In this document: positions 3,679 to 29,688 of the stretch, piece after piece | Layout: each line of letters opens with the position of its first letter | How positions within the stretch are numbered: the stretch's first letter is position 1 | Virus record (IMG/VR): IMGVR_UViG_3300038696_000188 | Coordinates: 1-61,651 of that record | Source of the DNA: a virus | Taxonomy: Duplodnaviria > Caudoviricetes | DNA: 61,651 nt | Reading direction: 5' to 3' (one strand) | Position numbers and translations under genes: made by a program | The notes under the pieces: model-generated | The model's input: only the letters and a program-made list of their open reading frames with translations | What the model was told of the DNA's origin: nothing | Database searches by the model: none

Positions 3679-3748
3679 GGGGACAAGCCGATTTGACATT
3701 CTAAAGTATCTACACTAAACTAGGTATATCACAACGAAGGGACACACA

Positions 3749-3945: not shown

Positions 3946-4107
3946 ATGGGAACCTACCTAAAATATGTATTCATCACCGCACTCACCACAGGGATATTCC
4001 TATCCTTCCACGACACCTACTGGACTTACGCCATCTACCCCGCAATGATTGTCTGGGGAATGATTGCCCTGGGTCTAGCGTTAGAGCGGAGAGAACGCGG
4101 AAAGTAG
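3946..4107 (+). CDS. 53-aa membrane microprotein
   Basis: RBS GAAAGGA; two hydrophobic segments and a basic tail. Confidence 0.65.
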   Translation: MGTYLKYVFITALTTGIFLSFHDTYWTYAIYPAMIVWGMIALGLALERRERGK

Positions 4108-4156
4108 CCACACTAGTGTAGTTGCGCTTGCAGGGTTTTTGATGTATACTTTATGT

Positions 4157-4315
4157 ATGACAAAGCATAAAGGAATCGAGAACCCCGAATACGCAAAGGC
4201 TATGGCAGAACTACGCCGTAGTGGCGCTAGTGGAACCCACGCGGACAAGCGAGAGAAGCGTGCCCGAACACGCGGAGCGCAACTACGCCGTGCCGTGCGT
4301 GAGCAACACGCCTAA
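4157..4315 (+). CDS. 52-aa Arg-rich basic peptide (leaderless)
   Basis: TTGCGC-N17-TATACT-N6-ATG; MTKHKGIENPEYAKAMAELRRSGASGTHADKREKRARTRGAQLRRAVREQHA. Confidence 0.7.
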   Translation: MTKHKGIENPEYAKAMAELRRSGASGTHADKREKRARTRGAQLRRAVREQHA

Positions 4316-10185: not shown

Positions 10186-10413
10186 CTAGCAAGTCTCGAA
10201 TTGGATTTCGTAATCCTCACCCTTGACCAACCCCCGTGCGTGAAAGTCTGCGGTGATGGGCGCAAGCCAAGCCACTGCGTCATTCCAATGACCGAAAACT
10301 CCACCACTCTCCGTGGTGTAAGGCAAAGCCTGGTGCCACGCTGTCTCGCGAACAGTGACGACATAGTCTGTGCGAACATATTCTGCGATTTTGGCTTCTG
10401 TGATTTTGCTCAT
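10186..10413 (-). CDS. Hypothetical protein
   Basis: RBS GAAAGG; promoter TTGACA(10471)-N17-TAGTCT. Confidence 0.7.
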   Translation of the reverse strand: MSKITEAKIAEYVRTDYVVTVRETAWHQALPYTTESGGVFGHWNDAVAWLAPITADFHARGLVKGEDYEIQFETC

Positions 10414-10574
10414 CGTGAGCCCCTTTCATCTGGTGTACTACCAGACTATCGCCCTAACGTGAGAATGTCAAGTCTAAACAAAAAAAAATAAAAAAAGTTT
10501 TTTGTTGTTTTGACTTGCGGATTTGTCTTGTATGCCCTAGACTAAGTACATCACTCCAACGAAAGGAATCCAAA

Positions 10575-10760
10575 ATGGATAATTCAGACATCAAGCGCCT
10601 AGCCACCCTCAAGCGTGAGAAAAGCGAAAATGAGCAGGCTCTCGCCCGCTCCATCTTCATCTACCAAGCGGACAGGCTACAAGGCGCGATTCGCTCTCAA
10701 GCGAAAGCCATCGCAAACCTAGAGCTAGGGCTCAAGCTCTCAGGCAGGGGTAGCGCCTAG
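10575..10760 (+). CDS. Small coiled-coil protein
   Basis: TAGACT at 10538, CAACGAAAGGA leader; terminator at about 10783-10812. Confidence 0.7.
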   Translation: MDNSDIKRLATLKREKSENEQALARSIFIYQADRLQGAIRSQAKAIANLELGLKLSGRGSA

Positions 10761-13107: not shown

Positions 13108-13148
13108 GTTTGTAACCGTATTCCGCCAAATTGACGAGGAGCCCCCAC

Positions 13149-14876
13149 GTGGGTATTTTTAATAAGGAAGAGCCACCAGTAGCGAGCAACCTTGGTGCTG
13201 CCACTCGGAAGAGGAAATCTACTTCTGGCCGTTCCATGTCTCGTTCTACGCAGATGGTCTCTGCCCCTGGTTCTCAGCCTGGTCTTTTTTATAACACTCC
13301 TGCTCCTGCCGCTTATAACACTCCTAGGTCTTTAACTGCTGCTGCTGCGCAGGTTAAAACTAATGATAAGGGCGAGTTCGAGCAGTTTAAGGCTCGCCGT
13401 TCTGCTTCGTCTTCTGCTTGGCAGGCTGAGGCGTGGGAGTATTACGATGCTATTGGTGAGATTAAGTATGCTTTTAACCTGGTAGCTTCTGTTGTTTCTC
13501 GTATTCGGATTTATGCGGCTGCTGTTGATGACCCTAGCCAGGCTCCGATTCCTGTTGATGAGTCTAGGGTTGTTGACCCTAATCTTGCTGCTGCTGCTCA
13601 GCGTGCTTTGAATCGGTTGAACTCTGCGTATGGCGGACAGCCTGGTTTGTTGAAGGATGCGGCTCTTAACTTGGCTGTGTCTGGTGAGTGTTATTTGGTT
13701 CAGATGCCTGCCCGTAGGGGTACTGGTGAGCCTGAGTCTTGGGATATTCGTTCTGTTGACGAGGTCATTGTTGATGGTCGTGGGCAGTATAACGTTATTG
13801 GTCGCCGTGAGCAGGCGCAGGGTGGCAAGATGAGTGGGGGTGTTACTGCTCTTGGCAGTAAGGCTTTTGTTGGTCGGATTTGGCGTTCGCACCCTCGTTA
13901 TTCTGATGAGGCTGATAGTTCGCTTCGTGGTCTTTTGGACCTTTGTGCTGAGCTTTTGCTTCTTAACCGTACTTTCCGTGCTACTGCACGTTCTCGCCTT
14001 AACGCTGGTGCTTTGTATCTGCCTGATGGTCTTTCTGTCGCGGCTCAGGGTGACCCTGAACTTTACGACTCTGAGGATGGGATTGGCTCTGGTGTGACGG
14101 CTGAGGAGGCAGAGGACGAGTTCGAGGAGCAGTTGATTGATGCGATGACGACTCCGATTCGTGATGAGGAGTCTGCGTCTGCTGTTGTCCCACTGATTAT
14201 TCGTGGGCCTTCTGAGCTTGGTGATGCTATTAAGCAGTTTAAGTTTGAGCGTTCTTTTGACCCTGCTTTGGCTTTGCGTGCTGACCGTGTTTTGGAGCGC
14301 ATCATGCAGGGTCTTGATGTTCCTAAGGATATTGTTACGGGTCTGGCGAATGTGAAGTATTCGAATGCCCTGCAGATTGATGAGTCTTTGTATAAGGCTC
14401 ACATTGAGCCTCTCATGCTTCTTATTGTTGACGCTCTTACTGTTGTGTATCTTCGCCCGTATCTCACTGCTAATGGGTACACAGATGAAGAGGTTTCTCG
14501 TATTACTGTGTGGTATGACCCCTCAGCGGTCTCCACACGTAACGACAGGGCCACGGACGCTGATGCAGGGTTTGACCGTGGTGCAGTGTCTTCAGACGCT
14601 TGGCGACGCGCACACGGCTTCTCAGACCAGGATGCTCCGACACCTAACGAGGTTGCTCTTCGTATGCTCACTGAGCGTGGGGTTTTGACTCCTGAGTTGA
14701 CGGAGGCAATGCTTGCCGCTGTTTCGCCTGAGATGATGAACGCGGTGCGTGGTGCACAGCAGGCTGCGTCTGTTGCGCCTTTGCCTCCTGATGTTGAGGA
14801 TGCTTTGAAGAGCGCTTCTCCTGGTGCTGCTGGCGCATCTGATGCTGGCACTGATGATTCCGCTGGAATAGAATAG
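13149..14876 (+). CDS. Portal protein
   Basis: WQAEAWEYYDAIGEIKYA and HPRYSDEADS motifs of cluster-B-like actinophage portals; position; GTG after GAGGAG. Confidence 0.85.
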   Translation: MGIFNKEEPPVASNLGAATRKRKSTSGRSMSRSTQMVSAPGSQPGLFYNTPAPAAYNTPRSLTAAAAQVKTNDKGEFEQFKARRSASSSAWQAEAWEYYDAIGEIKYAFNLVASVVSRIRIYAAAVDDPSQAPIPVDESRVVDPNLAAAAQRALNRLNSAYGGQPGLLKDAALNLAVSGECYLVQMPARRGTGEPESWDIRSVDEVIVDGRGQYNVIGRREQAQGGKMSGGVTALGSKAFVGRIWRSHPRYSDEADSSLRGLLDLCAELLLLNRTFRATARSRLNAGALYLPDGLSVAAQGDPELYDSEDGIGSGVTAEEAEDEFEEQLIDAMTTPIRDEESASAVVPLIIRGPSELGDAIKQFKFERSFDPALALRADRVLERIMQGLDVPKDIVTGLANVKYSNALQIDESLYKAHIEPLMLLIVDALTVVYLRPYLTANGYTDEEVSRITVWYDPSAVSTRNDRATDADAGFDRGAVSSDAWRRAHGFSDQDAPTPNEVALRMLTERGVLTPELTEAMLAAVSPEMMNAVRGAQQAASVAPLPPDVEDALKSASPGAAGASDAGTDDSAGIE

Positions 14877-14913
14877 GAAGTTTGTGGTGGGACACAAGTA
14901 TGTGGGGGGCGAT

Positions 14914-15384
14914 ATGCCTGATAATGCGAAACTTAAGCTTGCTAACAATGTTGCAATGAATCTTGGTAACGCTGTTGTTTTTACGTTTAAAGCTCAGGGG
15001 CATCATTGGAATGTTGAGGGTGAAGATTTTAGTCAGTTTCATAACTTTTTTGGTGAAATTTATGAGGATGTCCAGGATTCTATTGACCCGTTGGCTGAGA
15101 ATCTTCGTAAGTTGGATATGAAGGCTCCTAGTAATTTGATTGAGTTTGCTCAGTGTTCTTGTATCACTGATTCTCCTTCTTGCGATAATGTTTTTATGAT
15201 GTTGGAGGATTTGTATACTGCCAATAATCAGTTTATTTTGTCGCTTAATGAGGGGTTTAAACTTTCTGAGGCTGCTTCTGAGTATGGGATTAACGACTTT
15301 TATGGTGGGCGCATTGATATGCATAAGAAGTGGGAGTGGATGCTTCGCTCTCATTTGCGTGGGCAGCGGGGGCTTGGTTACTAA
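14914..15384 (+). CDS. dps: Dps / ferritin-like protein
   Basis: HHWNVEGEDFSQFHNFFGEIYE...D.LAE...HKKWEWML ferroxidase signature. Confidence 0.9.
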   Translation: MPDNAKLKLANNVAMNLGNAVVFTFKAQGHHWNVEGEDFSQFHNFFGEIYEDVQDSIDPLAENLRKLDMKAPSNLIEFAQCSCITDSPSCDNVFMMLEDLYTANNQFILSLNEGFKLSEAASEYGINDFYGGRIDMHKKWEWMLRSHLRGQRGLGY

Positions 15385-16310
15385 TGTCTGATTGGGATAA
15401 CTTGGAGCGTGGCAAGCCTTTTGTTGTTGCGTCTGCTTCTGTTGTCCCTAAGGGTAAGATTCCTACTCCGAAGGAGTTGTACGCATCATTGTCGGCAAAT
15501 AGTGCGGCTCGTGAGGAGCTCCGCGCTGAGGCCCCTGATGGTTACCACTATATGCCTGATGGCGAGCTGATGAAGGATTCGGAGCATGAGGCCGAGGAGT
15601 TTGCTGCTAAGCGGAATCGTACTAAGGCTCAGACTCCTGCCCCTAAGAAGGACCAGAAGAAGGGGTCTTCTGAGAATAAGAAGGGTTCTGCTGCTGGCGG
15701 TAAGAAAATTACTTTTTCTAAGTCAGTTGAGGCTTCTTTGCAAAATAAGGTTGCAGAGCACAATGAGAAGGCTTCTAAGGGGCGTAGAGCTTCTTTGGGG
15801 ATGTTGAAGGCCGTGTATCGACGGGGCGCTGGTGCTTATTCTACAAGTCACCGTCCTGGGCAGTCTCGTGGTGGTTGGGCTATGGCCCGTGTTAACGCGT
15901 TCCTTCGCCTGTTGAGGTCTGGTAAGCCTAGTAAAGCTGCTTACACTCAGGATAATGACCTTCTTCCTTCTGGCCACCCCAGGGCGTCTAAGAAGGGCGC
16001 GTCTGCTGATTCTTTGCTTGCTGGTGGCTCTTATTTAATTCCTGAGGAAAAGGATTTGGTTTCAGCTGCCGTTGAGCACGACCTTACTGTTTTGTTGAAA
16101 GATAAAGACGATTATTCTTCTACTGAAGAGGCTATACTTAATTTTACAGAGTACATGGGTCTTGGATATGAAACAGAGTTTGCGGTTAGAGCCAGTTGGC
16201 TTCGTGCGGTTCGAAATGGGGAGAGCCCGTTTCAGCGTGTTCGGATGCTAGCTACGATGACTTACGACAGTTTGGATGCAGACCTCCTGCCTAAGGAGAA
16301 CAATGCTTAA
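15384..16310 (+). CDS. Head-module protein with DUF5824-like domain
   Basis: LKAVYRRGAGAYSTSHRPG...WAMARVNAF motif; TAATG coupling to dps. Confidence 0.7.
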   Translation: MSDWDNLERGKPFVVASASVVPKGKIPTPKELYASLSANSAAREELRAEAPDGYHYMPDGELMKDSEHEAEEFAAKRNRTKAQTPAPKKDQKKGSSENKKGSAAGGKKITFSKSVEASLQNKVAEHNEKASKGRRASLGMLKAVYRRGAGAYSTSHRPGQSRGGWAMARVNAFLRLLRSGKPSKAAYTQDNDLLPSGHPRASKKGASADSLLAGGSYLIPEEKDLVSAAVEHDLTVLLKDKDDYSSTEEAILNFTEYMGLGYETEFAVRASWLRAVRNGESPFQRVRMLATMTYDSLDADLLPKENNA

Positions 16311-19300
16311 CATTTTCAATAGAGGGAAGAAGTCTTCTTCTCCCGCTAAAACTGCGGTAGAGAAAATTAATGAGTCTGCTCTTGCTTTGATTGTTTCAGC
16401 TAACGAGACGCAGCGTGGCGGTCGGTTGGTCACTAAGGGTGCCGCGTTGGAGATTGTTCGTCGTTCTTTGGTGAAGAATCGGGATGCTACTTTTTCGGTT
16501 AAAAAGTTTCACGCTTTAAAAGATGTTTCGGAATATGTATCTTTGGCGCAGCGTAACAAAGTTATTACTGCTTCTGCTGCCCATTTTGACTTGTTGCCTG
16601 TTGGGCACCCTTCTTCGGCTCGTTCTCACTCTATGTCTGATGAGGATGTGATGCGCTCTCGTGCTCGTTGGTATGCGGATGATTCTATTGTCACTGATGA
16701 AGTAGTTTATTCTTTGTTGGCTGCTGCTTTTGTTTCAGATTCTTCTTCTCCTGAGTACATTTATGCTGCAGCACGTTTGGCTGCTATGGGCGCGTCTCGG
16801 GTGCCTATTGATGCTTTGGTTGCGGCTTTGGGCTTCAATGATGGGGCTAACCGTGGGTTTTGGCGTAGGCAGCTTCGTGACCCTAAGGGTCGTTGGGCGA
16901 GAATGTTTGGCCTTATTAAGACTTTGGTTGATGTTGGTGGGCAGGTGCGTCCGCAGTACACAAAAATTGTTTCGGCTGACCCGAACACTAATAGGGTCCG
17001 CTCTATGCAGCCAGATGGCAGGATTATTGATAGCCCTGTTGAGTCTATTGATGCTGATGTTAAGGCTGTTATTCCTGGCGATGAGTCTCCCGATGGTATT
17101 GCTAGTTCGCCTGCCAGGTTTGAGACGGGTGACCCTATCACTAGTGTTGCTGATTTGGTTTATGTTGACGAGCCTCACGGTTTCTCTCGTAAGGGTGCAC
17201 CGTCTAGCCCTGAGGGGTTGGATGTGGATAAGTTTGAGCGTGTTTGGGAGGATGAACTCGGCAACTATCAGGTTATTCAGGGAAACTTTCGTGAGGGCGA
17301 GGGTTCTGAGTTTGTTGTTTCTCGTTTGGAGCAGGAGCAGGTTGTTCCAATTGGTGTTGGTAAGAACTGGTTTGATGCCGCAAAGATTGTGAGCGCCGAT
17401 GAGCTTAACTTCCAGAAGGGCGATGATGCAGAGCCAAACATCCCTGAGGGGTTTGACATTGGCCCAGGGGCTAGGGAGGATATTAATCCTGCGGATTTGA
17501 GTTCTGATGAGCTTGCTGCTGGCTATGGTTGGACTAAGTCTGATGGTAGGTACAATCGTGATGGGTTTGATATTGAGGAGATGCCAGATGGCAAGTGGCT
17601 TCTCACTGAGACTGGCGAGGGTGGCGAGTCTCGCGAGAGTGGACCTTTCGATGGTCCTGCCGATGCTTTTGAGCAGGGGCAGATTGATTCTGATGGTCCA
17701 GAGTTTGACCCTGGTGCTGTTGTAGATTTCCGTAATGACCAGGCTCCGCCTGAGACCCCCGAGCCTGTGGCACCGCAGGGGGAGGGGTTTTATGATGTTG
17801 ACCGTGGCCCGTATGAGCCGAAGGGGCCTGGGGATGGGGCGGAGTCTGAGGACTACACTGATGACCCGACCGAGATTGCTCAGCGGTTTGAGTCGAGTGA
17901 TTTAGAGAGTGCCCTTGAGGAGTCTGTTCGTAATGGTTCGGGGGAGGGGCTTCTTCCTTTCCAAGAGGGTGACGAGTATGTTCCCGCTGAGGCAATGTAT
18001 AACGCTCTTAAGGAGCAGGACCGCGACCCCGATGCTTTGTTGGATGACATTTACAGTGGCGATGTTGCTGTCCCTGACCAAGTAGACCTTCCTGGCGATG
18101 TCCAGGATTCTGTTGAAGACCAGGGTCCAATTACTGCTGAGCAGGTTGCCGAACTTCGTAGCGAGCAGGACCTCCCCGCTTTGCTTGACGGGCTCAATGA
18201 TGAAGAGCTTGCTGATGTTATCAATAACAAGGATTACAGTCCGTATCTTCCTGGTAACGATGAGTTTGATGTTCCTGAGGGCATGTATGAGATTGACTCA
18301 AACCCTTTTGACCCTAACGCTGATATTGCTCCTGATGACGCTCCTGAGGGCGCACCTAATAATCCTTATGATATGGCAATGGACATGTCTACTGAGGATT
18401 TGGAGAATGGCTTGCGGGGAGCTATTGCTGTCGACGAGGACTCTGACCGTCTTGGCTACTACCCGATTGTTGCTTTTGATGAGGACGGCGAGGAGTATTC
18501 TTATGATGCTCCAGCTGAGGCTTTCCGTGATGCCCTCCAGTTGCAGGGGGTTGACACCAACGAAATTTTGCGAGAAGCTTATTCAGATACCGAACCAACA
18601 CCTGACGAAGCAGCAGAGATGCTTGATGGTGAGAATATAGAGGAGACAGATAGTGGCGGAGAACCAGGAGCAGCAGACGGTGACGCAGGCGGACAGGGAC
18701 AGCGCGGCGAAGGCGTACCCGAACCAGACGTGGACGGACGAGGAAATCAAGATGGCGAAAGCCCTTGGTCATCTCTAGGTAACCCTCTCCCTGAGGCGGC
18801 TAGCGCCCAGGATATTAGGGATAGGGACCTCCCTACTCCCGAGATTTTTGAGCTTGACCCCGAGACTGATGCTGATGCTTTTGAGGCTCAGATGCAGGGC
18901 CTGAAGAAAAACAATGACTATGCTGCTTCGGTCTTTGTTTATGAGCCTGAAGAGTATCGCGAAATGCGGTTGTTCTCGACTGAGGATGGTACTGCTGGCT
19001 TTGCGTTGAAGCCTAGCGGGGACATTGTTTCTGTGTATGTTTATGGTAATTCACCTCATAAGAAAGCTACGGCTTCGATGCTTGCTCAGGCTGTGGAGTT
19101 GGGTGGGGACCGTCTTGACGCGTATGACACGGTTCTTCCAAAGATTTACGCTGAGGCTGGGTTTAAGCCTATCTCTCGCGTAACCTGGAATGATGCGTTT
19201 GCGCCCGAAGGTTGGGATAAGAAGACTTACGCTAAGTTCAATGAGGGTGAGCCTGATGTTGTTGCTATGGCGTATGACCCTGACCGTTTGGGTAGTAAGT

Positions 19301-22300
19301 ATGACCCAACGGAGGGCGAGGTTTTTGCTGATTACGATGAGGCTATGGCTGCTCGGGATGCTTCTATTGATGGTCCCGATGGCGTTGCTGAAAGCCCATT
19401 GGGTAGAACTTACGACATTTCCGATTGGGAGCAGGTAGGCGGGCAGTCTGGCTCTAATCAGGGCGGATTGTATCGTGATGCCGACGGCAATGAGTATTAC
19501 GTTAAGTTTCCGCCACAGAAGCAGCTCCGTAACGAGCTTCTCGCTTCGGCTCTTTATGAGAAGGTTGGTGTTCCTGTTGGTCGTGTCTATCTTGGGCGTG
19601 ACGCAGATGGCAAAGAGGTTCTTGTTTCTCCTATGCTTAAGAACTCCGAGTCTTTGCAGGACAATCTTGATAACCCTGACGCTATTGAGGGTGCTCGACT
19701 TGATTTTGCAGCGGATGCTTGGTTGAATAACTGGGATTCTGTTGGCCTTGTTTTTGATAACATGGTTATGGCTGACGAGAATGTGGCGGGTGTTGGCAGG
19801 CAGCTTTACCGTATTGATGCGGGTGGGTCTTTGTTGTTCCGTGCGCAGGGTGGCGACAAGGACCTCCCTGAGGATGTCAAGCTTATTGATACTTTGCGTA
19901 ACCCAGATATGAATCAGCAGGCTGCCACTATTTATGGTGACATGACTGATGAGGACATTAAGTTTAGTGTTCAGCGGATGCTCCCTGGCGCTACTGACGC
20001 AAATATTGATGAGCTTGTTGATTCAGCTTTCCCCGATGACACGGAGACTGCGGACTTGCTTAAGGAGCGCCTTAAGTCGCGCCGTGATTATTTGATTGAG
20101 CGTTTTAAGCCGTTGACTCCTGAGGCGTTGGACAATGCTGTTGCTGGCGAAGAGGAGACTGTCCGCTTTGATAGTTCGCCTGAGTTGGACAATGCTGTTG
20201 CGGGTGAGGAGCAGGCTTACTCTGAGCAGCTTAAGGAAGCTCAAGAGAATGTTGACGAGTCTTTCGCTGACAGTCCTTTAGTTCTTGATTTTGATGGTGA
20301 CGTTGAGGCTCAGGTTAATGATGCCATTGAGAATCAGAGGGACCTTGTCTTTTCGTATAACGGGGTTGACCGCATTGTTCGCCCTGTGTCGGTTGAGACG
20401 AACGAGAACACTGGCAATACAAACATTTCCGCTGTTGATGGTGATGGCAACTTTAAGAAGTTCACCATTTCGAAGATGTCTTCGGCACAGGATTCTGACA
20501 ATACTGTTGGTGACATTGTTGGCGAGGACTCTGGGGGCGATGAGATTGAGACTTCGGATGCTGTTGGTGCTGGTTATGAAGCAATCAAGAGCCAGTATTC
20601 TGCTGAGGAGCAGGAGGTTCTTGACAAGATTTTCTCGACTAAGGATGCAACTTCTGAGGAGCTCGAGAGCTTTGGTGAAGAGTCTGATGTAAATGATGAC
20701 ATAACAACAGACTATGTCCAGAAGATTGACTCTTACGACTCTGATGCCCCTGTGGTGTCAACTCCTGAGCAGAAGGTTATGGCTGACGCTGTTGAGGAGC
20801 TTATCAACCCTGAAGAGGGTGCGCAGGCCGCTGAGGCCAACGCAGCCGAAATTGCGGCGCTTTACGACAAGCTGGTTAATGGGATTAACTCGCCTGATAA
20901 CACGGAGTCCGACATTATTTGGCAGCGTGTTCAGGACGAGTACGAGGGAACTCTTCTGCCCAACGGACACATAGTTGTGTCTTCGACGATGCATGGTGAC
21001 CGTCGCTATGATGTTGTGGTTCGCCGTAATAACGACAACACGTTCCACATTTACCACCGTGTCACTTACCCCGATGGCTCAACTAAGGTTAAGGAGATGG
21101 GCGGTCAGGGCTGGCATTCAGCTGAGGCTCTGTTCTCTCGCGTTGACAATCAAATCTTTAATTCAAAGAGCCGCCCGAAGACAACGGTTAACAAGGGTCT
21201 AAAGCAGGAGAACGACAACACTCTCTACGCCGACACCTCAACTCCGACTCAACCTGGTAGCTATGTTGCTGCTGATGGTTCTGTGGTGAAGAAGGGTGAC
21301 CGTATTACGGTTGTTAACCCCACTCACAGCAAGTTTGGTGTGGGGGGCCGTATTGTTAGTACGAAACGTAAGTACAGTTCTGATGGCAAGAAGTACACAG
21401 ACTATCTCCGCGTTCGCTATGACGATGGCACTAAGAACAATATTGTTTCGACGAGTGTTGTTCCCGAGGGCAACGCGACTCCTGCTCCGTCCACGTCGTC
21501 TAAGACACCAAAAAAGCCAGCAGTTAAGACGCCAGTTACGTCGCCCGCTAAGACGAAATCTGGTGCTCCAATTCTTCCGCCACCTCTTGGAACAAAACCA
21601 TTTGGTCCTACTGTTACAGCGGCAAACGCTGTTCCTGGTGACCGTCTCGACCTCAAGGAGTCTTTAGCGCTCCCGCTAGGTTCGGTTGTGAGGTCTGGTG
21701 AGGGGCGCTTCTACTCACTATTTAATTCAGAGAACAACGTATGGGTAGACATCTCTAATGACTTTACGCATAATCTCACAGAGAGCGACCGAGCAGTGTA
21801 CATCGCACCTAACAAGGACGCGGCTCTTAACGAGGTGGGTCCCGAGGTTGAAAATCCTTTAGAGAGCGGTGCCTTACCCGCACCTTCTTCGTGGACTGTT
21901 GCGACAACCAACGCCGAGGGGGATGCACTCGATGAGTTTACGCTTCCTTCTGGTGACTTGGTAGTTGACGCTAGACTTTATATGCACAAAAAGAATCGTC
22001 ACTATTTGAATAAAGACTTTGCGAAGCAGTATGGTTTTGATGGTACGGGCAAACTGCAAGCTGGACTGCAAAAGCTTTTTACTTCACAGAAGAAACCGAC
22101 AAAAGTTCCCTCGACTGGTTTGGTTGAAATCGTGCCAGGATTTATTGTCATGGACGCAAGTCTTCCATCGACCGTGGCTGACATGAGTAAAACACAATAT
22201 ATCGTGGACGATGTTGATTTTAATACTGGAGAGTTTAGTGTGGTTGCTATTACAGGACCTGACAGAACTAAAAGGTTTGTTGGTCTCAGTGGGAAAGATG

Positions 22301-23919
22301 TGATGGCAACGTCTGGATTTTTGAGCCCTTTGGATGCTGACACTAGGTTTGGCGTTAAAATTGCTGACAAACCTATGCGGGAAATTAAAGAAGCTAAACT
22401 TTTTATTGAGAACCCTGGATTCTATAGCGACGCGAATATGGTCAATGGCGCTGGCGTTGACGAGCCAGAGTTAGAGTCCCTGCCTGACTGGGGGCAAGCT
22501 CCTGAGGGCACTGTTTCTACAGAAGATGCGCTCAACCAGCTTCGCCAGTGGGATTCGTTGGGCGATGCACGGCAGACTACTCAAGGTATTTATACCTTGA
22601 TGGACTCAGTTTCTATTGAGGATGGGCAAGTAAGGATTCAACGAGTAGTAGACGCTGATGGCAACAAGCGAGTCAGGCTTACAGGAAAACTTACGAGTTG
22701 GTTTGGTCGAAACAAATTTATTTCTGATGTCGATAGCGGAAAGATTTCTGCAAAAGAGTCTGCGGGAATTGATTTTAACTTTTACGAGCAAACTGATGAT
22801 GGTCTTAGTTATTCTGCTACTCCTGTTGGCGGCTTTGAGATTGATGACGCACAAACAGGAGCAACCTATTCGTATAAAACTTCTCAGGGCTATGATGTCG
22901 CGGTTCACAGGGCTCTAACTGCCGAGGAAACATTGGGATTGTCCGAGAATGAAAAAGAGCTTGACTATTTCAGTACTCACGAGAGTGGCTATGACCGAAG
23001 TGTCTCTCTTCACAACATGTTTGATGTTCTTTTGCCCGAGAATGCTTCGTCTTCCGATATTGAGCAGGCGTTGCAAGAAATGGGAATTACACAATCGCGG
23101 CCTGCTACTGATTTGGATGTTCGCACAATTATGGAGAACAAGCTTATTACTTTGTTTGGTCAGAAACGGGACGGAACCAAGAACGCATCTGGGTTGCTTC
23201 GTGAACAAGAGCTGCAAAAAATCAAAGAAACTTACAATATTACTGTAGATGATTTAATTATTGAGAGTGATAAGACTACTAGGAGTAGGCCGATAATTAA
23301 GCTTTCCCCAGAGGCGGCTAAAAATGTTGTAGAAAGTTCTGGTATTAAGCACTTTTATCACCAGATGGGCACGAGTAGTTTGCTAGGAAACCTTGACGAC
23401 ACGGCCAATGCTATTGTTGATTTGTTTGAGGATGGGGCTTTAGCCAGTAGTACCTCTAGGCTTATTACGGGGGGCAACACAGGGCAGTCATCAAACGACG
23501 ATATATTCCGTCCTGGCGCTGACTACACTTTTTTGTATCTCGTAAATGATTCTAACGCAAAAGACGCTGGGCACTGGAACGCTGACCCGACTTATGTTAG
23601 CTCTGTCAGCTTTATCATTGACCCTCAAGCTATGCTTGAGAGGCTTGACTTTTACGCAAACGAGGGAGACCTGTGGGGGATGATGCAGAATAAGGTGTTT
23701 GACCCGCTCAAGGCTTTGGAGGGGGCAAATTCTTCGGCAGAAGCATTATTTAAAACAGATGTCCCTCTTAGTGCTATAAAAGCTATGTCGGTGACTCCCG
23801 AGCTTCGCGCACGTGTCCTAAAGATTTTGGCGGAGAGAGGGATTGACTTTATCAATGGAAACGATGTTCAGCAGATGATGAGCACCCCCGCTTCCGATTG
23901 GGATTGGAGTAGAAAATAG
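16303..23919 (+). CDS. Giant (~2540 aa) polyvalent, probably virion-associated protein: GNAT-like, kinase-like, WYL-like, SH3-like and ART-like domains
   Basis: RBS AAGGAG; domain motifs described in findings; lies between portal and prohead protease. Confidence 0.75.
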   Translation: MLNIFNRGKKSSSPAKTAVEKINESALALIVSANETQRGGRLVTKGAALEIVRRSLVKNRDATFSVKKFHALKDVSEYVSLAQRNKVITASAAHFDLLPVGHPSSARSHSMSDEDVMRSRARWYADDSIVTDEVVYSLLAAAFVSDSSSPEYIYAAARLAAMGASRVPIDALVAALGFNDGANRGFWRRQLRDPKGRWARMFGLIKTLVDVGGQVRPQYTKIVSADPNTNRVRSMQPDGRIIDSPVESIDADVKAVIPGDESPDGIASSPARFETGDPITSVADLVYVDEPHGFSRKGAPSSPEGLDVDKFERVWEDELGNYQVIQGNFREGEGSEFVVSRLEQEQVVPIGVGKNWFDAAKIVSADELNFQKGDDAEPNIPEGFDIGPGAREDINPADLSSDELAAGYGWTKSDGRYNRDGFDIEEMPDGKWLLTETGEGGESRESGPFDGPADAFEQGQIDSDGPEFDPGAVVDFRNDQAPPETPEPVAPQGEGFYDVDRGPYEPKGPGDGAESEDYTDDPTEIAQRFESSDLESALEESVRNGSGEGLLPFQEGDEYVPAEAMYNALKEQDRDPDALLDDIYSGDVAVPDQVDLPGDVQDSVEDQGPITAEQVAELRSEQDLPALLDGLNDEELADVINNKDYSPYLPGNDEFDVPEGMYEIDSNPFDPNADIAPDDAPEGAPNNPYDMAMDMSTEDLENGLRGAIAVDEDSDRLGYYPIVAFDEDGEEYSYDAPAEAFRDALQLQGVDTNEILREAYSDTEPTPDEAAEMLDGENIEETDSGGEPGAADGDAGGQGQRGEGVPEPDVDGRGNQDGESPWSSLGNPLPEAASAQDIRDRDLPTPEIFELDPETDADAFEAQMQGLKKNNDYAASVFVYEPEEYREMRLFSTEDGTAGFALKPSGDIVSVYVYGNSPHKKATASMLAQAVELGGDRLDAYDTVLPKIYAEAGFKPISRVTWNDAFAPEGWDKKTYAKFNEGEPDVVAMAYDPDRLGSKYDPTEGEVFADYDEAMAARDASIDGPDGVAESPLGRTYDISDWEQVGGQSGSNQGGLYRDADGNEYYVKFPPQKQLRNELLASALYEKVGVPVGRVYLGRDADGKEVLVSPMLKNSESLQDNLDNPDAIEGARLDFAADAWLNNWDSVGLVFDNMVMADENVAGVGRQLYRIDAGGSLLFRAQGGDKDLPEDVKLIDTLRNPDMNQQAATIYGDMTDEDIKFSVQRMLPGATDANIDELVDSAFPDDTETADLLKERLKSRRDYLIERFKPLTPEALDNAVAGEEETVRFDSSPELDNAVAGEEQAYSEQLKEAQENVDESFADSPLVLDFDGDVEAQVNDAIENQRDLVFSYNGVDRIVRPVSVETNENTGNTNISAVDGDGNFKKFTISKMSSAQDSDNTVGDIVGEDSGGDEIETSDAVGAGYEAIKSQYSAEEQEVLDKIFSTKDATSEELESFGEESDVNDDITTDYVQKIDSYDSDAPVVSTPEQKVMADAVEELINPEEGAQAAEANAAEIAALYDKLVNGINSPDNTESDIIWQRVQDEYEGTLLPNGHIVVSSTMHGDRRYDVVVRRNNDNTFHIYHRVTYPDGSTKVKEMGGQGWHSAEALFSRVDNQIFNSKSRPKTTVNKGLKQENDNTLYADTSTPTQPGSYVAADGSVVKKGDRITVVNPTHSKFGVGGRIVSTKRKYSSDGKKYTDYLRVRYDDGTKNNIVSTSVVPEGNATPAPSTSSKTPKKPAVKTPVTSPAKTKSGAPILPPPLGTKPFGPTVTAANAVPGDRLDLKESLALPLGSVVRSGEGRFYSLFNSENNVWVDISNDFTHNLTESDRAVYIAPNKDAALNEVGPEVENPLESGALPAPSSWTVATTNAEGDALDEFTLPSGDLVVDARLYMHKKNRHYLNKDFAKQYGFDGTGKLQAGLQKLFTSQKKPTKVPSTGLVEIVPGFIVMDASLPSTVADMSKTQYIVDDVDFNTGEFSVVAITGPDRTKRFVGLSGKDVMATSGFLSPLDADTRFGVKIADKPMREIKEAKLFIENPGFYSDANMVNGAGVDEPELESLPDWGQAPEGTVSTEDALNQLRQWDSLGDARQTTQGIYTLMDSVSIEDGQVRIQRVVDADGNKRVRLTGKLTSWFGRNKFISDVDSGKISAKESAGIDFNFYEQTDDGLSYSATPVGGFEIDDAQTGATYSYKTSQGYDVAVHRALTAEETLGLSENEKELDYFSTHESGYDRSVSLHNMFDVLLPENASSSDIEQALQEMGITQSRPATDLDVRTIMENKLITLFGQKRDGTKNASGLLREQELQKIKETYNITVDDLIIESDKTTRSRPIIKLSPEAAKNVVESSGIKHFYHQMGTSSLLGNLDDTANAIVDLFEDGALASSTSRLITGGNTGQSSNDDIFRPGADYTFLYLVNDSNAKDAGHWNADPTYVSSVSFIIDPQAMLERLDFYANEGDLWGMMQNKVFDPLKALEGANSSAEALFKTDVPLSAIKAMSVTPELRARVLKILAERGIDFINGNDVQQMMSTPASDWDWSRK

Positions 23920-24491: not shown

Positions 24492-24791
24492 ATGATGATT
24501 TCTAAAGGTAAAAAAGTTGTTGACTTTGTCGAAGTTTACTTTTCTGATAAAACACAAGAGCTTATTGCTTTAGTTTACGTTCTTAAGGGTGTTGGGGAGT
24601 ACATCCGTCAGGACGGCATGTGGCTACCTTTTGAAGATATGCCTGAAGAAATTTATGATGGCTCTGAATATGTTGTCCTGGAGAAGGCGGACGCACTTGA
24701 TATGCAACTAAAAGAAAAGTTTGACGAAGGCGATGCAATCTCTCGAGATGAAGTTTTCGCTAAAGGAACGGATAAGTACGATGATATCTAG
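24492..24791 (+). CDS. Small acidic hypothetical protein
   Basis: RBS AGGAG; overlaps the protease start. Confidence 0.7.
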   Translation: MMISKGKKVVDFVEVYFSDKTQELIALVYVLKGVGEYIRQDGMWLPFEDMPEEIYDGSEYVVLEKADALDMQLKEKFDEGDAISRDEVFAKGTDKYDDI

Positions 24792-27700
24792 CGAGCTGAC
24801 CTACAAAGGTCGCAAGGGTGACAAGGTCCTTTATCTCAAGAGTGACTTTGGGGTGGTTATTGAGGAGTCCACTAATCTTGTTCTAGAGGTGGGCCCAGCC
24901 GAGGCTCTAATGGCCTCTTCTCGCTGGTTGAATCTTAAAAATAAAAAGCCCACACCTGTGTCTGAAGAGTTGGCTAATGCCGCATTGACAGAGCTTGACA
25001 TCACTGTGGTTGCGTCTGGCGACCGTATGTATACTATTCCCAAGGGCGCGGTTGCTGAGGCAAAGCGTGGGTTGGAATGGCGCAAGGAGGGGAAGCGCGG
25101 TGGCACCCCTGTGGGCCTTAATAGCGCTAGAACTATTGCTAAGGGCGGCCAGATTGGTATCCAGAAGGTTCGCCACATTGCTAAGTATTTTCCCCGTCAC
25201 GAGGTAGATAAGAAGGGTAGGGGCTACAAGCCTGGCCAGGATGGCTACCCTTCTAATGGTCGAATTGCTTGGGCTCTTTGGGGTGGGGATGCTGCTCAGC
25301 GTTGGGCCGCTTCTATTGTTGAGTCTGAAAACAAAAATAAGTCAAATGCTGTAATCACCGCAGGTATGTTTGAAAACTATGACACTGAGGAAAGAGTGGA
25401 CTACGCTTCTTTTAACACGGTGTCTGCTAGTTCTGAGTTTTATATTAGGATTCGCTTGGACACGGGGAGCATTGACCGTCTCTATAAAGTCAACGAAGAC
25501 GGCACTTGTTTTGTGTGGGATGACGGTTGCTGGGAAGATTTGGGGAATGTCCAGCACGACTTTTTTACGTATGATAAGTCGCTCGATGAGCCTTACGACA
25601 CTGTAAAAAAGGTTCACGTATCTGTTGACCGCGAGAGTGCAATTAGCATTTCGGCAATGTTTGACACTGCGCCTTTTGATGGTGTCTCTCTTAAGAGTCT
25701 TAACTTTGAAGAGACGGAACTTTTTGAGAGTGCTATGCCTGGGGTGGACTGGGTGCTGTTGGACCAACTTAGTTCTGACACGGTCGAGGAGTACGAGGAA
25801 GAGGAAGAGTACGACGACGGTCTTATGGCGTCCGGTGTTGCGGAGTTTGCTGAGGCAGAAACCGAGGACACGACTCCAGGGGTTTACAGCCCTGAGGAGC
25901 GCTCTGAGGCGGCCTCTTCTCAGGTTAGGGATAAGCTTGGAAGATTCGCACAGAACGGCTCACGAGTTGTTATTGGAGGAAACTATGACTATCAGGGAAC
26001 AATTACTGCACAAGATTCTGATGCTGGAACAATTAGTGTGGAGCTGGATAACGGAAGTACGGTTGAGGTACCAGGAAACACGACGCAGGAAGTAAGCACC
26101 TTTGAGCCTATTTCTCAGGTTCCCGCAAGTAACTTGGATTTTTCGGGTATTTTGGGTGAGCCACGTACTCCGATTGACCAGGGTGGGGCAACGCTCCCAG
26201 GGACACTTCCTGCTCTTAACAGAGATAGTTTAGATTCTGTTGTTTCTAGTTGGGGCAGCTGGGTTGCGGACCAACGTCTTGCACCTGAATACGAGGCTAC
26301 TCCTGCAGCGCCTTTTATTCCTAAGGCTGTGCCTGATATTAATACTGCTATGGGACGGTACTACCAGGGGGCGTTTAACCCAGACGGTAGCGCTAAGTCT
26401 AGTTGGAACCCAGCTATTGCCCCTAACGTTGCAAATGAGCCTCTTCTTCGTAACTGGCTTGACAATGTTTACGGTAAAAGTACTGGTGGGTACCAGGGGG
26501 GTTGGTACAAGCCTACCGTTCCCGTTGAGGCTAAAAAATCTAAAGAAGAGGTTTACAGTAAGGGTAACCAACAAGCTTGGGACAAGAAGTACAGCATTTA
26601 TGCTTCTGCACTAGTCGCTGCTGGAGATGCTCCCGCCCTCACCCCAGAGACTTCTGACGTTGCGCCTATGTATATGGCTATTGTTTCACCTGATGACCCT
26701 CAGGCTGTTCTTGAGCTTATTTCTTTGGTTCCTGCTACAGCAAAGACTATCCAACCAGCTGCATTTAAGCGGTCTGATAAGAAGTGGGTTCAGGACGATA
26801 AAATTCTTGCAGATTTGAATAGTCCCACTCCTCCGCCTGTAATTGTTTTGGATAACGAGAATTTGTCTGTTGTTTTGGAGCAGGTCGATGGGGGCCCAGT
26901 AACTGCGAGCGCCTTCCATGCTTTGACAAACAATGAAATATTGCGGGCTATTCAAGCTGCTGGTGGTGCTGACCGCAATCGTGGAAATGCCGAAAACTTG
27001 CGCCGCTACTGGACTGTAGGCAAGGGTGGTCTAAAAATCCGCTGGGGCACTGATGGTGACTGGACTCGTTGTAATCGCTACCTTAAGAAGTACATGGGTC
27101 CTCGCGCTAAAGGTTATTGTGCTCTCCGTCACAAGGAGATGAATGGTGTTTGGCCTGGTGACAAGCGCAATGTTGGCAAGAAGAAGGCTCTGCGTTCTTC
27201 TGGTGAGATGGAGACTTTAAAGACTTCCCAAACTATTATCGAGGAGTTTACACTCCGCGCTAGGGCGGAGTCTGCTCGGTCTCGCCTAGTTGGACGTTTG
27301 GGCCCTAAGCCTACAAAGCATGGTTCACGTTTTGTTATTCCTTTGGTTATCCCCGAGGCTACCGAAACTGGTGATGGACGCATCTTTGAAAGAGACTCTA
27401 TTTCAATGCGCAATCTTCCTCTCCCGTTAATGTGGCAGATTAAGAGCGGGCAGGGCCACGATGGCTCTGTTGTTGTGGGACAAATTATTTATATGGAAAG
27501 AACCGCAGAGGGTGTCGGGAATGCTTATGGCTATTTTGATACTGGAAGCTTTGGCCAAGAAGCAGAGCGCCTTGTTCGTCATGGTTTTATTCGTGGCGTG
27601 TCAGCTGATATGGATAAATTCGAGGCAGATGAGCCCGAAATTATTGAAATTGAAGACACCGAGAACGGCGGGACAGTAGAAAAAGAATCAGGTAAAATAA

Positions 27701-29688
27701 ATATTACAAGTGCAAGAATTATGGCTGTAACAATTGTGCCTAAACCTGCATTTCAAGAATGCTACATTCAGGTCGTTGACGAGAGTGACGACGTTGAGGA
27801 GGAAGTAATGCAGCCAGACGGTATCTACGTCGATGGGGTGAACCCACTTGACGCATCCGCTTTGGTGGCTTGCGGCATGGTGGCTGGGGCTATCCCCGTT
27901 GAGCCTCCAAAGACTTGGTTTAACAGCCCGAAGCTTGCTAGGGCAACTCCGCTCACTATTACTGATGAGGGTAGAGTTTTTGGTCATATTGCTGCTTGGC
28001 ATGTTGACCACATTGGTATGTCTAGCGGCACACGCCCGCCTCGTAGTCGCTCTAACTATGCTTATTTCCACACTGGAGTCCTTAGGACAGAGGATGGCGA
28101 CAGTGTCCCTGTTGGCCAGCTGACCCTTGCTGGCGGTCACGCTGGTATGGAGGCTTCGGCTCAGCAGGCAGTTCGTCACTACGACGACACAGCTTCCGCA
28201 TTTGCCGATGTTACTGCTGGCGAGGACGCTTACGGTATCTGGGTTGCTGGTTCCTTACGTCCTGGGACCACCCCTGAGCAAATCCGTGCTGCCCGTGCAT
28301 CGGCACCTTCTGGTGACTGGAGGCCCATTAAGGGTCGTCTTGAGCTGGTTGCTGTGTGCCAGGTGAATGTTCCTGGTTTCCCGATTGCCCGTGCTCGTGT
28401 TGCTTCTGGTCAGGTTATGGCTTTGGTTGCTGCTGGAGCGAGCACTCTTGCCCAGATGAAGTATGACCCCCTTGCGGAGCTTAATGCAAAGGTAAGCGAG
28501 CTTGAGTCTGCACAGTACTCGCCTAAAGCTAGCGAGGCTGCAGAGAGGTTCTCGGCAATGCGTCAAGAAGTTTTTGCTCTGCATGCTGCTAGAGCGTCTG
28601 CAAGAGTTAATAAGGTTAAAAAGGTTAAGGACACCATCAAAGAGGGCGACTGGGCCTACATGATTGAGATGATGGACGACAACCCAGAGAGCGAAATGTC
28701 TGTTGTTTCTCGTCGTGTCCGTGAGCGTCTTGCTAAGGAAGGCAAGGCTCTTCCTGATGGTTCGTATCCAGTTCGTAACGCAAATGATTTGAAGAATGCT
28801 ATTCAAGCATATGGTCGCTCTAAACCTGGGGCGCGTGCTGCTGTGCGCAAGCACATTATGAAAAGTGCTAAGCGTCTCAATAAGCAGGACTTGATTCCAG
28901 CTAGATGGAGCACTCAGTATTCGGCTGAAGGATTAGAGCTTTCTTTACATGAAAGAGTTGCCGCTGTGGCTGCTTTCCTCTCAAATCCTAATGAATTGCG
29001 AATTAGAGCTGAGTTGGCCTCTAAAAATTTAAATTCTGAAGCACTTTTTTCAGAAGAAGTTTTGACTGCTGCTGCCGCTGATGACGAGGATTTGAGGGAC
29101 CTAAAGCCTGAAGAGATTGAGGCACTTAAGCAGGGGGCTAGACAGCAGAAAGCTGACGCAGGAAAAAGCGATAGCGATGCTAAGTTTACGCCTGACACTC
29201 AGCCTCGTGACACTGCGGGGAAGTTTCGAAAGGTTTTAGCCCGATTAAAGAGTGACCTTGGCTCTTCTGGCTTGCAGGATGTGGTTGAGAAGGTTGAAGA
29301 GGCAGAGAATTTCGATAACGCAGGGGATTACGAGCAAGCATCTAAATCTGCAGAGGAATTGATTGGAGTTATCGACCGATTGGACGCTAAAGCCTTGAAT
29401 CCTGAAGCTTTGGAGAACATCCGCAACACTGCTGGTCAGCTGGGCGAAGTGATTGCCAATCTTCCTTTTGCTTTTGGGGCGGAGGCAGAGAAGATTCGCT
29501 ACAGCGACGTCCCACCTGCTCTTCAAAAATTAATGGAAGAGATGATTAAACGTGTTGAGGAGAAGATTGGGGAAGAGGACGCAGCCATTGCTACAGAAGA
29601 GCTGAAGAGCTTTATGTCTGGTGCCGACTACTTTAACCAGTCTGAGATTTCGTCTGAGATGTCGAAGCTTTTACGTCTTCTGACGTAA
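24781..29688 (+). CDS. Multidomain capsid maturation protease (~1635 aa)
   Basis: Central ETGDGR...LPLMW...HDGSVVVG...GVSADMD protease-like core; directly upstream of the capsid gene. Confidence 0.75.
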   Translation: MISSELTYKGRKGDKVLYLKSDFGVVIEESTNLVLEVGPAEALMASSRWLNLKNKKPTPVSEELANAALTELDITVVASGDRMYTIPKGAVAEAKRGLEWRKEGKRGGTPVGLNSARTIAKGGQIGIQKVRHIAKYFPRHEVDKKGRGYKPGQDGYPSNGRIAWALWGGDAAQRWAASIVESENKNKSNAVITAGMFENYDTEERVDYASFNTVSASSEFYIRIRLDTGSIDRLYKVNEDGTCFVWDDGCWEDLGNVQHDFFTYDKSLDEPYDTVKKVHVSVDRESAISISAMFDTAPFDGVSLKSLNFEETELFESAMPGVDWVLLDQLSSDTVEEYEEEEEYDDGLMASGVAEFAEAETEDTTPGVYSPEERSEAASSQVRDKLGRFAQNGSRVVIGGNYDYQGTITAQDSDAGTISVELDNGSTVEVPGNTTQEVSTFEPISQVPASNLDFSGILGEPRTPIDQGGATLPGTLPALNRDSLDSVVSSWGSWVADQRLAPEYEATPAAPFIPKAVPDINTAMGRYYQGAFNPDGSAKSSWNPAIAPNVANEPLLRNWLDNVYGKSTGGYQGGWYKPTVPVEAKKSKEEVYSKGNQQAWDKKYSIYASALVAAGDAPALTPETSDVAPMYMAIVSPDDPQAVLELISLVPATAKTIQPAAFKRSDKKWVQDDKILADLNSPTPPPVIVLDNENLSVVLEQVDGGPVTASAFHALTNNEILRAIQAAGGADRNRGNAENLRRYWTVGKGGLKIRWGTDGDWTRCNRYLKKYMGPRAKGYCALRHKEMNGVWPGDKRNVGKKKALRSSGEMETLKTSQTIIEEFTLRARAESARSRLVGRLGPKPTKHGSRFVIPLVIPEATETGDGRIFERDSISMRNLPLPLMWQIKSGQGHDGSVVVGQIIYMERTAEGVGNAYGYFDTGSFGQEAERLVRHGFIRGVSADMDKFEADEPEIIEIEDTENGGTVEKESGKINITSARIMAVTIVPKPAFQECYIQVVDESDDVEEEVMQPDGIYVDGVNPLDASALVACGMVAGAIPVEPPKTWFNSPKLARATPLTITDEGRVFGHIAAWHVDHIGMSSGTRPPRSRSNYAYFHTGVLRTEDGDSVPVGQLTLAGGHAGMEASAQQAVRHYDDTASAFADVTAGEDAYGIWVAGSLRPGTTPEQIRAARASAPSGDWRPIKGRLELVAVCQVNVPGFPIARARVASGQVMALVAAGASTLAQMKYDPLAELNAKVSELESAQYSPKASEAAERFSAMRQEVFALHAARASARVNKVKKVKDTIKEGDWAYMIEMMDDNPESEMSVVSRRVRERLAKEGKALPDGSYPVRNANDLKNAIQAYGRSKPGARAAVRKHIMKSAKRLNKQDLIPARWSTQYSAEGLELSLHERVAAVAAFLSNPNELRIRAELASKNLNSEALFSEEVLTAAAADDEDLRDLKPEEIEALKQGARQQKADAGKSDSDAKFTPDTQPRDTAGKFRKVLARLKSDLGSSGLQDVVEKVEEAENFDNAGDYEQASKSAEELIGVIDRLDAKALNPEALENIRNTAGQLGEVIANLPFAFGAEAEKIRYSDVPPALQKLMEEMIKRVEEKIGEEDAAIATEELKSFMSGADYFNQSEISSEMSKLLRLLT

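Follow-up and report, generated by a model that had tools for sequence, protein, structure and literature searches.

A giant head-module protein of a metagenomic tailed phage as a candidate packaged multi-enzyme effector with a DarT-like C-terminal unit

Introduction

Why would a tailed phage encode a protein of 2538 residues among its head genes, and what might such a protein do to the host? The question is raised by the IMG/VR virus record IMGVR_UViG_3300038696_000188, a linear, siphovirus-like metagenomic phage fragment of 61,651 bases, which we analyzed over its full length (hereafter, the window) and for which CheckV estimates a completeness of 38%. A preliminary description, made from the sequence without database searches, had read the giant gene at positions 16303-23919 as a polyvalent effector protein in the capsid module, proposing a packaged, protease-processed payload that acetylates, phosphorylates and ADP-ribosylates host targets on entry. 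Polyvalent proteins are believed to act in the infected cell ahead of any other phage protein, and to our knowledge almost none of them has been tested experimentally. The text of PMC5512222 counts ADP-ribosyltransferases (ARTs), kinases and GNATs among their protein-modifying domains and argues for their capsid packaging and injection; together with passages of PMC9503650, it sets the precedent for head-packaged ARTs and polyvalent effectors.

We were interested in the folds, the family and the genomic setting of this protein. It contains GNAT, atypical kinase and ART folds and belongs to a modular family that keeps its place in the head module. We consider it probable that the giant protein is a virion-delivered, multi-enzyme polyvalent effector of a tailed phage, and the payload proposed in the preliminary description is plausible.

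The giant gene and its place among the head genes

The gene lies in a single uninterrupted open reading frame (ORF) of 2547 codons at 16276-23919 on the plus strand, as given by the ORF list and its translation, and an ORF of such length cannot be a product of chance. The ATG at 16303 is likely the start codon: an AAGGAGA ribosome-binding site lies 4 nucleotides upstream, the gene overlaps the stop of the preceding gene by 8 nucleotides, and the public gene call for the record has the same start and the same length of 2538 residues. Because of this ribosome-binding site spacing, the overlap with the upstream stop and the gene call, we retained the start given in the preliminary description, and the whole gene therefore runs from 16303 to 23919 on the plus strand, in a frame open from 16276. 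Residue numbers used here start at 16276; subtracting 9 converts them to numbering from the ATG.

The giant gene resides in a head module, in which the portal gene (13131-14876; phrog_776, E 2e-105) is followed by a ferritin/Dps-like gene, a DUF5824 gene, the giant gene, two small ORFs for which Pfam gave no match, a gene for a 1655-residue protein with a head-maturation-protease region, and the major capsid protein gene (phrog_777). The gene 3' of the giant gene begins 3 nucleotides past its stop. Past the major capsid gene come the genes for the major tail protein, head-tail adaptor, tape measure, minor tail proteins and fibre. A megablast search against phage records returned no match, and the closest annotated relative is the metagenome-assembled Actinomycetia phage DSL-LC01, which has the same order of portal, DUF5824, giant, protease and major capsid protein genes. 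This gene order is also kept in an IMG/VR relative at 65% identity. We fetched the 1.5 kb 3' of the giant gene from 49 related loci of IMG/VR; in 40 of them, a homolog of the protein with the protease region started within that distance.

Enzyme-like units recognized by their folds

Sequence libraries were nearly blind to the giant protein. Pfam gave no match for the whole protein and, for pieces of it, HipA_2 at E 0.056 as a sub-threshold hint; NCBIfam returned for the pieces only DarT, also sub-threshold (E 0.078); and PHROGs matched one family of unknown function, located on the GNAT unit. None of the enzyme or barrel domains of the protein is thus named above threshold by Pfam, NCBIfam or PHROGs, and PDB sequences yielded no significant match to any unit in either single-sequence or profile searches. 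DNA polymerase III epsilon, the sole match when a profile of the giant family was searched against the PDB (E 0.083-0.12), was rejected as a candidate: the signal came from an RNase_T insert of the relatives that is absent from the protein of the window. We therefore folded two segments with AlphaFold. The first model covers residues 800-1740 (mean predicted local distance difference test score, pLDDT, 71) and the second residues 1741-2547 (mean pLDDT 81, predicted template modelling score 0.70), built from alignments of 28 and 31 sequences, respectively.

The atypical protein-kinase-like unit (19384..20133, plus strand; residues 1037-1286), which is of the CtkA/HipA/PI4K type and mobile, was modeled with a pLDDT of about 90. 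The preliminary description had proposed a HipA/PI3K-like kinase here, and the model bears this out. The structural search placed CtkA of Helicobacter pylori highest, with a Z of 16.0 for 218 aligned residues at a root-mean-square deviation (rmsd) of 4.3 Å and a Foldseek E of 6.9e-6, followed by PI4KIIa (14.4), CotH (14.0), MavQ (12.9), actin-fragmin kinase (12.2), HipA (12.1) and HipT (10.6). The top PDB profile match of the unit is the N-lobe of the LepB kinase (E 0.16). G1059, N1061, G1063, K1077, E1087, D1147, N1152, D1154, D1161, N1162 and D1181 are identical in all 28 rows of the alignment, and G1059/N1061/G1063, K1077, E1087, D1154, D1161-N1162 and D1181 are also identical in the eight rows of a second alignment. 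From motif order, we take these residues to be the glycine-rich loop, the Lys and Glu, the catalytic Asp/Asn and the metal-binding Asp.

The kinase unit is common to phages of Yersinia, Pseudomonas, Aeromonas, Escherichia and Gordonia. It is shared by gp129 of Yersinia phage fHe-Yen8-01, whose record carries the note "phage particle associated protein", and is found in the gene right after the portal in Gordonia phage Sixama. In Sixama, the portal gp72 is followed by gp73 (774 residues), which contains the kinase unit, and then by gp75 (1285 residues), annotated as "ADP-ribosyltransferase"; in this cultivable phage, the theme of the giant protein thus seems to be split, with the kinase and the ART encoded by separate neighbors.

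The GNAT-fold unit (18730..19380, plus strand; residues 819-1035), also mobile, has its structural core at residues 853-1002. The strands and helices of the model follow the order b1-a1-a2-b2-b3-b4-a3-b5-a4-b6, which is the GNAT order, with moderate confidence (pLDDT 50-84). Six GNAT chains aligned to it by VIA-align with Z of 8.1-8.7 over 111-136 residues, as expected from the GNAT-like domain listed in the preliminary description. By sequence, the unit matches phrog_2563, of unknown function, at E 4.4e-11, and its best PDB profile match, which takes in motifs A and B, is an HPA2-type acetyltransferase (E 0.17). In motif B, GNATs typically have a conserved Tyr ahead of the G-F; this Tyr (position 140 of the alignment query) and the G-F are invariant in all 12 rows, and the loop of motif A is atypical in the window (see below). 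The same unit occurs stand-alone, in 223-residue proteins and in gp117 of HATV-2, and as the C-terminus of "minor capsid protein" genes after the portal in Microbacterium phage Caron and in a Methanobrevibacter virus. A GNAT-like unit was also seen in a 3126-residue protein of Limnohabitans phage DC33 (PQ492659.1), a 39-kb record labeled Inoviridae; this taxonomic label and the size of the gene look odd for a filamentous phage.

The last unit, an ART fold closest to DarT, occupies residues 2346-2541 (23311..23898, plus strand), where an ART-like region had been predicted. In a Foldseek-independent search of the unit against 48,161 PDB representatives, the top four chains were all DarT, from E. 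coli (Z 7.7), Thermosipho (7.5), Thermus (6.8) and M. tuberculosis (6.6), and only six chains reached a Z of 5. Seven DarT entries aligned with Z of 6.4-7.7 over 146-160 residues, spanning residues 1-200 of the 208 of DarT, and Foldseek likewise matched the unit to DarT (E 1.6e-3, probability 1.0). Weaker matches went to other ARTs, namely Tpt1, SopF, CopC and OspC3. All 29 rows of the alignment of the ART unit alone share R2395, S2405, D2409, Y2417, D2465 and K2493; at least 90% of them have H2362 and E2489, and two show Q in place of E. The model places H2362 in b1, R2395 in a helix, and Y2417 and E2489 where b3 and b5, respectively, begin. Passages of PMC11543638 name H17, R52 (catalytic), S63 and E152 of DarT1 and Y71 of DarT2. 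By order and spacing, H2362, R2395, Y2417 and E2489 appear to parallel the H, the catalytic R, the Y/S and the E of DarT.

Because the closest structural match of the ART unit, DarT, ADP-ribosylates DNA bases, ADP-ribosylation of host proteins is not the sole reading of this unit. The protein could still be a packaged effector with a protein-modifying ART, of the type of T4 Alt, OspC/CopC or SopF, the likeness to DarT reflecting a shared minimal ART core; we hold this to be a real possibility, although we lean away from it. The text of PMC5512222 proposes that the ARTs of polyvalent proteins modify host proteins, the DarT hidden Markov models miss our unit, the weaker structural matches include the protein-targeting enzymes SopF (Z 4.0), CopC (Z 4.6) and OspC3 (Z 4.3), and a lead from the atlas points to a cluster of the OspC family. 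However, DarTs of four different bacteria lead the 48,161 chains with the whole domain covered, and an invariant Arg sits, as judged from order and spacing, at the place of the base-deprotonating Arg of DarT.

The unit is widespread. Its profile, searched against 1.84 billion representatives, matched 2,208 clusters (defined at 50% identity) at E of at most 0.001, 1,304 of them at 1e-10 or below and 179 at 1e-30 or below. Among the best 150 of the 2,208 clusters, 94 are of at least 1400 residues, and in 111 no more than 40 residues separate the end of the unit from the C-terminus. In BFVD, the unit resembles uncharacterized proteins of giant viruses, baculoviruses and an iridovirus, which may be the ORF28 family that passages of PMC9503650 relate to DarT-like ARTs. 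Ten short members of the ART-unit family matched no ART family in Pfam, so that an intermediate-sequence bridge to DarT was not obtained. In two IMG/VR relatives, the ORF runs about 340 residues past the ART unit, which is otherwise C-terminal (locus positions 2167-3825 and 2434-4161).

A fixed frame with an exchangeable middle

A whole-length homolog search identified 71 proteins of 1471-4433 residues, including that of the window. We mapped the other 70 onto the query and scored a module as present at a coverage of at least 60%. The N-terminal module was present in 35 of them, the acidic repeats, the GNAT-like unit and the kinase unit in 34 each, the WYL-like unit in 28, the module at residues 1545-1725 in 27, the region at residues 1780-2040 in seven, and the pre-ART module and the ART unit in 30 each. 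All 30 homologs bearing the ART unit also have the kinase unit, and GNAT, kinase and ART occur together in only six. In other giant proteins, the GNAT, kinase and WYL-like units take other positions and another order, and we therefore regard them as mobile units. At the site of the GNAT in the window, with the acidic repeats on one side and the kinase on the other, many relatives have RNase_T (a DEDD exonuclease) and NUDIX domains, which looks like a swap of cargo inside one frame. Pfam domains found on the homologs include MPTase-PolyVal, ART-PolyVal, LPD22, LPD38, ArdC-N, Zeta toxin, RNase_T and NUDIX. As judged by these sequence comparisons, the family layout is one of conserved N- and C-terminal modules with an exchangeable middle.

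The frame begins with the conserved N-terminal module (16333..17565, plus strand; residues 20-430), possibly an assembly or targeting part. Two acidic repeats follow on the plus strand, at 17782..18081 (residues 503-602) and 18277..18609 (residues 668-778), the consensus VP.EA..DAL(Q/K).QG.D of the second being retained in the family alignment. The pair had been listed in the preliminary description and does align, with 31% identity over 113 columns and a pairwise E of 2e-12 with composition correction off. Aspartate and glutamate make up 20-30% of residues 300-900.

Downstream of the kinase, a small β-barrel (20302..20481, plus strand; residues 1343-1402) was modeled as a helix and four strands with a pLDDT of 74-89. 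The preliminary description had called it WYL-like. A small barrel is indeed at that place, and the WYL domains of PafBC are its top PDB profile matches; the matches are weak, however (E 0.21-0.87, with Sac7d at E 0.8), Pfam WYL does not match it and the W-Y-L triplet is absent, so that we call it WYL-like only tentatively. In the giant protein of DSL-LC01, two tandem WYL-like copies (10216-10692) are located upstream of the kinase, not downstream. The next conserved module (20593..21252, plus strand; residues 1440-1659) consists of helices and then a four-stranded sheet with helices, with a pLDDT of 80-90 over residues 1565-1640 approximately. It is kept in 27 of the 70 homologs and in 26 IMG/VR loci, and no structural match to it was among the 50 matches listed for the model of the long segment at residues 800-1740, so that we left its fold unassigned.

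The SH3-like domain of the preliminary description proved to be a five-stranded SH3-like barrel of the KOW type (21253..21471, plus strand; residues 1660-1732). It aligned to a KOW domain of DSIF with a Z of 9.4 and an rmsd of 1.8 Å over 60 residues, to KOW6-7 with a Z of 8.2, and to the KOW domain of NusG with a Z of 8.2 and an rmsd of 1.4 Å, with 53-60 residues aligned across the KOW matches. The Pro/Lys/Thr-rich linker that follows (21496..21609, plus strand; residues 1741-1778) is evident from its composition and a pLDDT below 50. Beyond the domains listed earlier, we identified two further barrels on the plus strand. The second SH3-like barrel (21604..21846; residues 1777-1857) resembles ribosomal uL2-type SH3, Tudor, KOW, and the PafBC and CapW WYL barrels with Z of 4.2-5.8, a weak and generic likeness, and the third, SH3/KOW-like barrel (22114..22329; residues 1947-2018) resembles Spt5 KOW and kin17 with Z of 4.4-4.7 (Foldseek probability 0.97-0.99 for kin17). 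The pre-ART α/β module (22507..23310, plus strand; residues 2078-2345), mostly at a pLDDT of 85-95, has only weak matches, to TBP-like folds (Z 4.4-4.6) and ARPC2 (Z 4.0); the matches to CopC and OspC3 (Z 4.3-4.6) span both this module and the ART unit.

Such a frame could also belong to a mainly structural or mechanical protein of the head interior or of ejection, acting as a scaffold, as a DNA-condensing or counter-ion protein or as part of an ejectosome, with the enzyme-like domains as relics or binding modules. The great size of the protein, its long, acidic and partly disordered region, the conserved terminal modules, the several small barrels and the atypical coenzyme A (CoA) loop of the GNAT would suit such a role. 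We nevertheless consider it very unlikely, given that the catalytic-type residues of the kinase are kept in 28 of 28 rows and R2395, S2405 and Y2417 of the ART in 29 of 29, at least 90% of which also keep H2362 and E2489, and that the enzyme units are exchanged like cargo, RNase_T and NUDIX taking the place of GNAT in relatives.

Packaging, timing and targets

Packaging is supported indirectly by the conserved position in the head module, by the "particle associated" note on gp129 and by the occurrence of the GNAT unit on MuF-type minor capsid proteins. The framing of the protein as a polyvalent or MuF-toxin-type product of the head module fits all that we found, including its conserved head position and its units common to minor-capsid and particle-annotated proteins.

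As a packaged effector, the giant protein would be made with the head proteins, probably built into the capsid and released into the host with the DNA, possibly with some proteolytic processing. The fixed frame would comprise the N-terminal module, the two acidic repeats, the WYL-like and KOW-like barrels and the C-terminal module ending in the ART, and would carry exchangeable enzyme units, here a putative GNAT acyltransferase and a CtkA/HipA-like kinase. On entry, host factors would be phosphorylated by the kinase and acylated by the GNAT, by analogy with the T7 kinase and T4 Alt, and the DarT-like ART would use NAD+ to ADP-ribosylate its target, possibly a nucleic-acid base rather than a protein. 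The catalytic-type residues conserved in the alignments of the kinase and the ART are consistent with active enzymes.

Several points weigh against this reading. Every enzyme assignment rests on AlphaFold models built from 28-31 sequences. For the ART unit, the DarT Z of 6.4-7.7 falls in the "middling" range on the alignment tool's own scale, the NCBIfam DarT model NF048013 scored 13.4-13.7 bits against a cut-off of 150 and did so in one of 29 family members, Pfam DarT (PF14487) did not match, and the profile of the unit searched against PDB sequences reached neither DarT nor another ART. For the kinase unit, HipA_2 stayed below its gathering score, at 13.1-13.7 bits against a cut-off of 27 in three of eight members (E 0.01-0.056). 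The GNAT unit of the window has no Pfam match, Acetyltransf_7 being sub-threshold in three of 12 relatives with a best E of 0.0065. The pyrophosphate loop of GNAT motif A typically reads R/Q-x-x-G-x-G/A, and the glycine of this CoA-pyrophosphate loop is replaced in the window, K-K-A-T-A-S standing against the R/K-G-A of the relatives. Scans of the whole protein and its pieces with Pfam and PHROGs yielded no Phage_Mu_F or other head- or capsid-targeting family at E of at most 1, and the N-terminal module has no recognized relative in Pfam, PHROG or the atlas, with one weak match among proteins of 237-755 residues. We infer the presence of the protein in virions for a phage known from a metagenome alone, as a fragment estimated to be 38% complete.

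Moreover, expression from a late structural operon equally fits an enzyme acting in the producing cell. The giant protein would then not be injected but would be a late multi-enzyme that acts on DNA or virion proteins of the phage itself, ahead of packaging or while it proceeds, e.g., by DarT-like ADP-ribosylation of phage DNA as an anti-restriction mark, or by phosphorylation and acetylation of head proteins. The translational coupling of the gene to its neighbors in that operon and the missing capsid-targeting domain in the Pfam scans are compatible with such a role, and so are the ART unit closest to a DNA-modifying ART and the WYL-like and KOW-like barrels, which are typical nucleic-acid binders. 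We judge this alternative to be unlikely because the GNAT unit is fused to MuF-type minor capsid proteins and the kinase unit occurs in a protein annotated as particle associated, and because published analyses of such proteins, in the text of PMC5512222 and passages of PMC9503650, favor packaging. Self-modification might be regulated by an eraser, and no Macro (DarG) or NADAR match was found anywhere in the window, within a record that is 38% complete.

Packaging as an effector thus being the reading we prefer, a bolder extension of it concerns the target of the ART. Phages may carry enzymes of a very large DarT-like family, which no current library names, at the end of giant capsid-borne proteins and use them offensively, so that host DNA or RNA is ADP-ribosylated, or the phage DNA itself marked, at entry. 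In that case, the WYL-like and KOW-like barrels would serve to hold the nucleic-acid substrate, and the kinase and GNAT, or RNase_T and NUDIX in the sister proteins, would be interchangeable anti-defence cargo. This proposal is tentative, and we regard it as rather doubtful. If the DarT-like unit does modify nucleic acids, DNA ADP-ribosylation would be a weapon of phages as well as of bacteria; the chemistry of bacterial anti-phage defence would be turned against the host, and the hosts' orphan ADP-ribose-removing enzymes would have a reason to exist.

Neighboring genes

Some genes near the giant gene deserve mention in their own right. The ferritin/Dps-like gene (14884-15384, plus strand) directly follows the portal and matches Pfam Ferritin (E 2.5e-19) and phrog_3636, annotated as "DNA binding protein"; this is an odd site within a head module, and its product could be another capsid-borne protein. 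The DUF5824 gene (15330-16310, plus strand), whose stop overlaps the giant start by 8 nucleotides, has a 57% identical homolog at the equivalent position in phage DSL-LC01, which suggests that its product is a conserved partner of the giant protein. In the 1655-residue protein (24721-29688, plus strand), only residues 877-1302 match head-maturation-protease or portal-type PHROGs, whereas the first 870 residues or so and the last 350 or so have no PHROG match, and Pfam matches none of it; it may be a second large head fusion protein. Farther away, a family-A DNA polymerase gene (46975-48801, plus strand; phrog_17, E 1e-108) directly follows the tail-fibre genes on the same strand.

Comparison with known systems

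The domain list and coordinates of the preliminary description were accurate, the named domains being recovered at about the proposed positions, mostly at the level of fold only; the GNAT, kinase, KOW/SH3 and ART folds were found, with catalytic-type residues conserved. Its suggestion of a new system was overstated. Since polyvalent proteins with ARTs, kinases and GNATs were already described in 2017 by Iyer et al. (PMC5512222, text), the giant protein belongs to a known class and not to a new kind of system. Like the published polyvalent proteins, it is a very large polypeptide with several effector-type domains whose gene lies in the company of portal and capsid genes, and Pfam recognizes PolyVal and LPD domains on its homologs. 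The ART in the text of PMC5512222, however, is of the H-Y-D type (Tox-ART-HYD2), whereas that of the window is H-Y-E/Q and DarT-like, and the published kinase is an ePK without the C-terminal subdomain from elements of Verrucomicrobia and Bacteroidetes, whereas that of the window is CtkA/HipA/PI4K-like. The window's family also differs in keeping its N- and C-terminal modules fixed around a middle that can be swapped and in units that the Pfam PolyVal models miss. It is, by these features and its library-unnamed units, a new family within the polyvalent class, set apart from PMC5512222 by the text of that paper, whose supplementary architecture lists may already contain it. Our literature search, which covered main texts, found no paper on these giant proteins and no statement placing a DarT-like ART in virion polyvalent proteins. 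The family is large, unnamed in the libraries and clearly modular, and it therefore offers defined units for expression and assay.

The closest annotated counterpart, WJZ48510.1 of DSL-LC01 (3289 residues, "hypothetical protein"), is 33% identical over 44% of the query. It shares the gene position, the N-terminal module, the kinase, the WYL-like unit and the C-terminal ART module, but is longer, has two WYL-like units and, by tblastn, no GNAT-like unit. MuF-toxin fusions resemble our protein in bearing the GNAT-like unit, at the C-terminus of portal-adjacent minor capsid proteins, although no MuF domain was detected in the protein of the window.

DarT is the best structural match to the last 200 residues or so, with H, R, Y and E in the same order at similar spacing. 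Its HMM cut-offs are not reached, however, and a DarG or NADAR partner is missing from the window. Furthermore, DarT is a chromosomal anti-phage toxin of about 200 residues, whereas our unit ends a giant phage head-module protein. The kinase unit shares a two-lobed protein-kinase-like fold with CtkA (JHP940), HipA/HipT, PI4KII-alpha and CotH, at an identity of just 11-18%, and differs from them in being a module of a 2538-residue protein. CtkA is encoded on a mobile element, the tfs3 integrative and conjugative element, and depends on the type IV secretion system of that element, according to passages of PMC5536186.

Among phage proteins with a comparable role, neither T4 Alt nor T7 gp0.7 has sequence-level homology to the units of the window. 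The T7 kinase is expressed from an early gene and is not packaged, and Alt is an R-S-E ART of about 70 kDa. Both are functional analogs of our protein. Passages of PMC13645617 describe how gp0.7 phosphorylates many host proteins and disarms defences, and the text of PMC5512222 describes Alt as packaged in the head and injected with the DNA. The kinase unit described here would be a second lineage of phage kinases, unrelated to T7 gp0.7 and found in phages that can be grown and tested.

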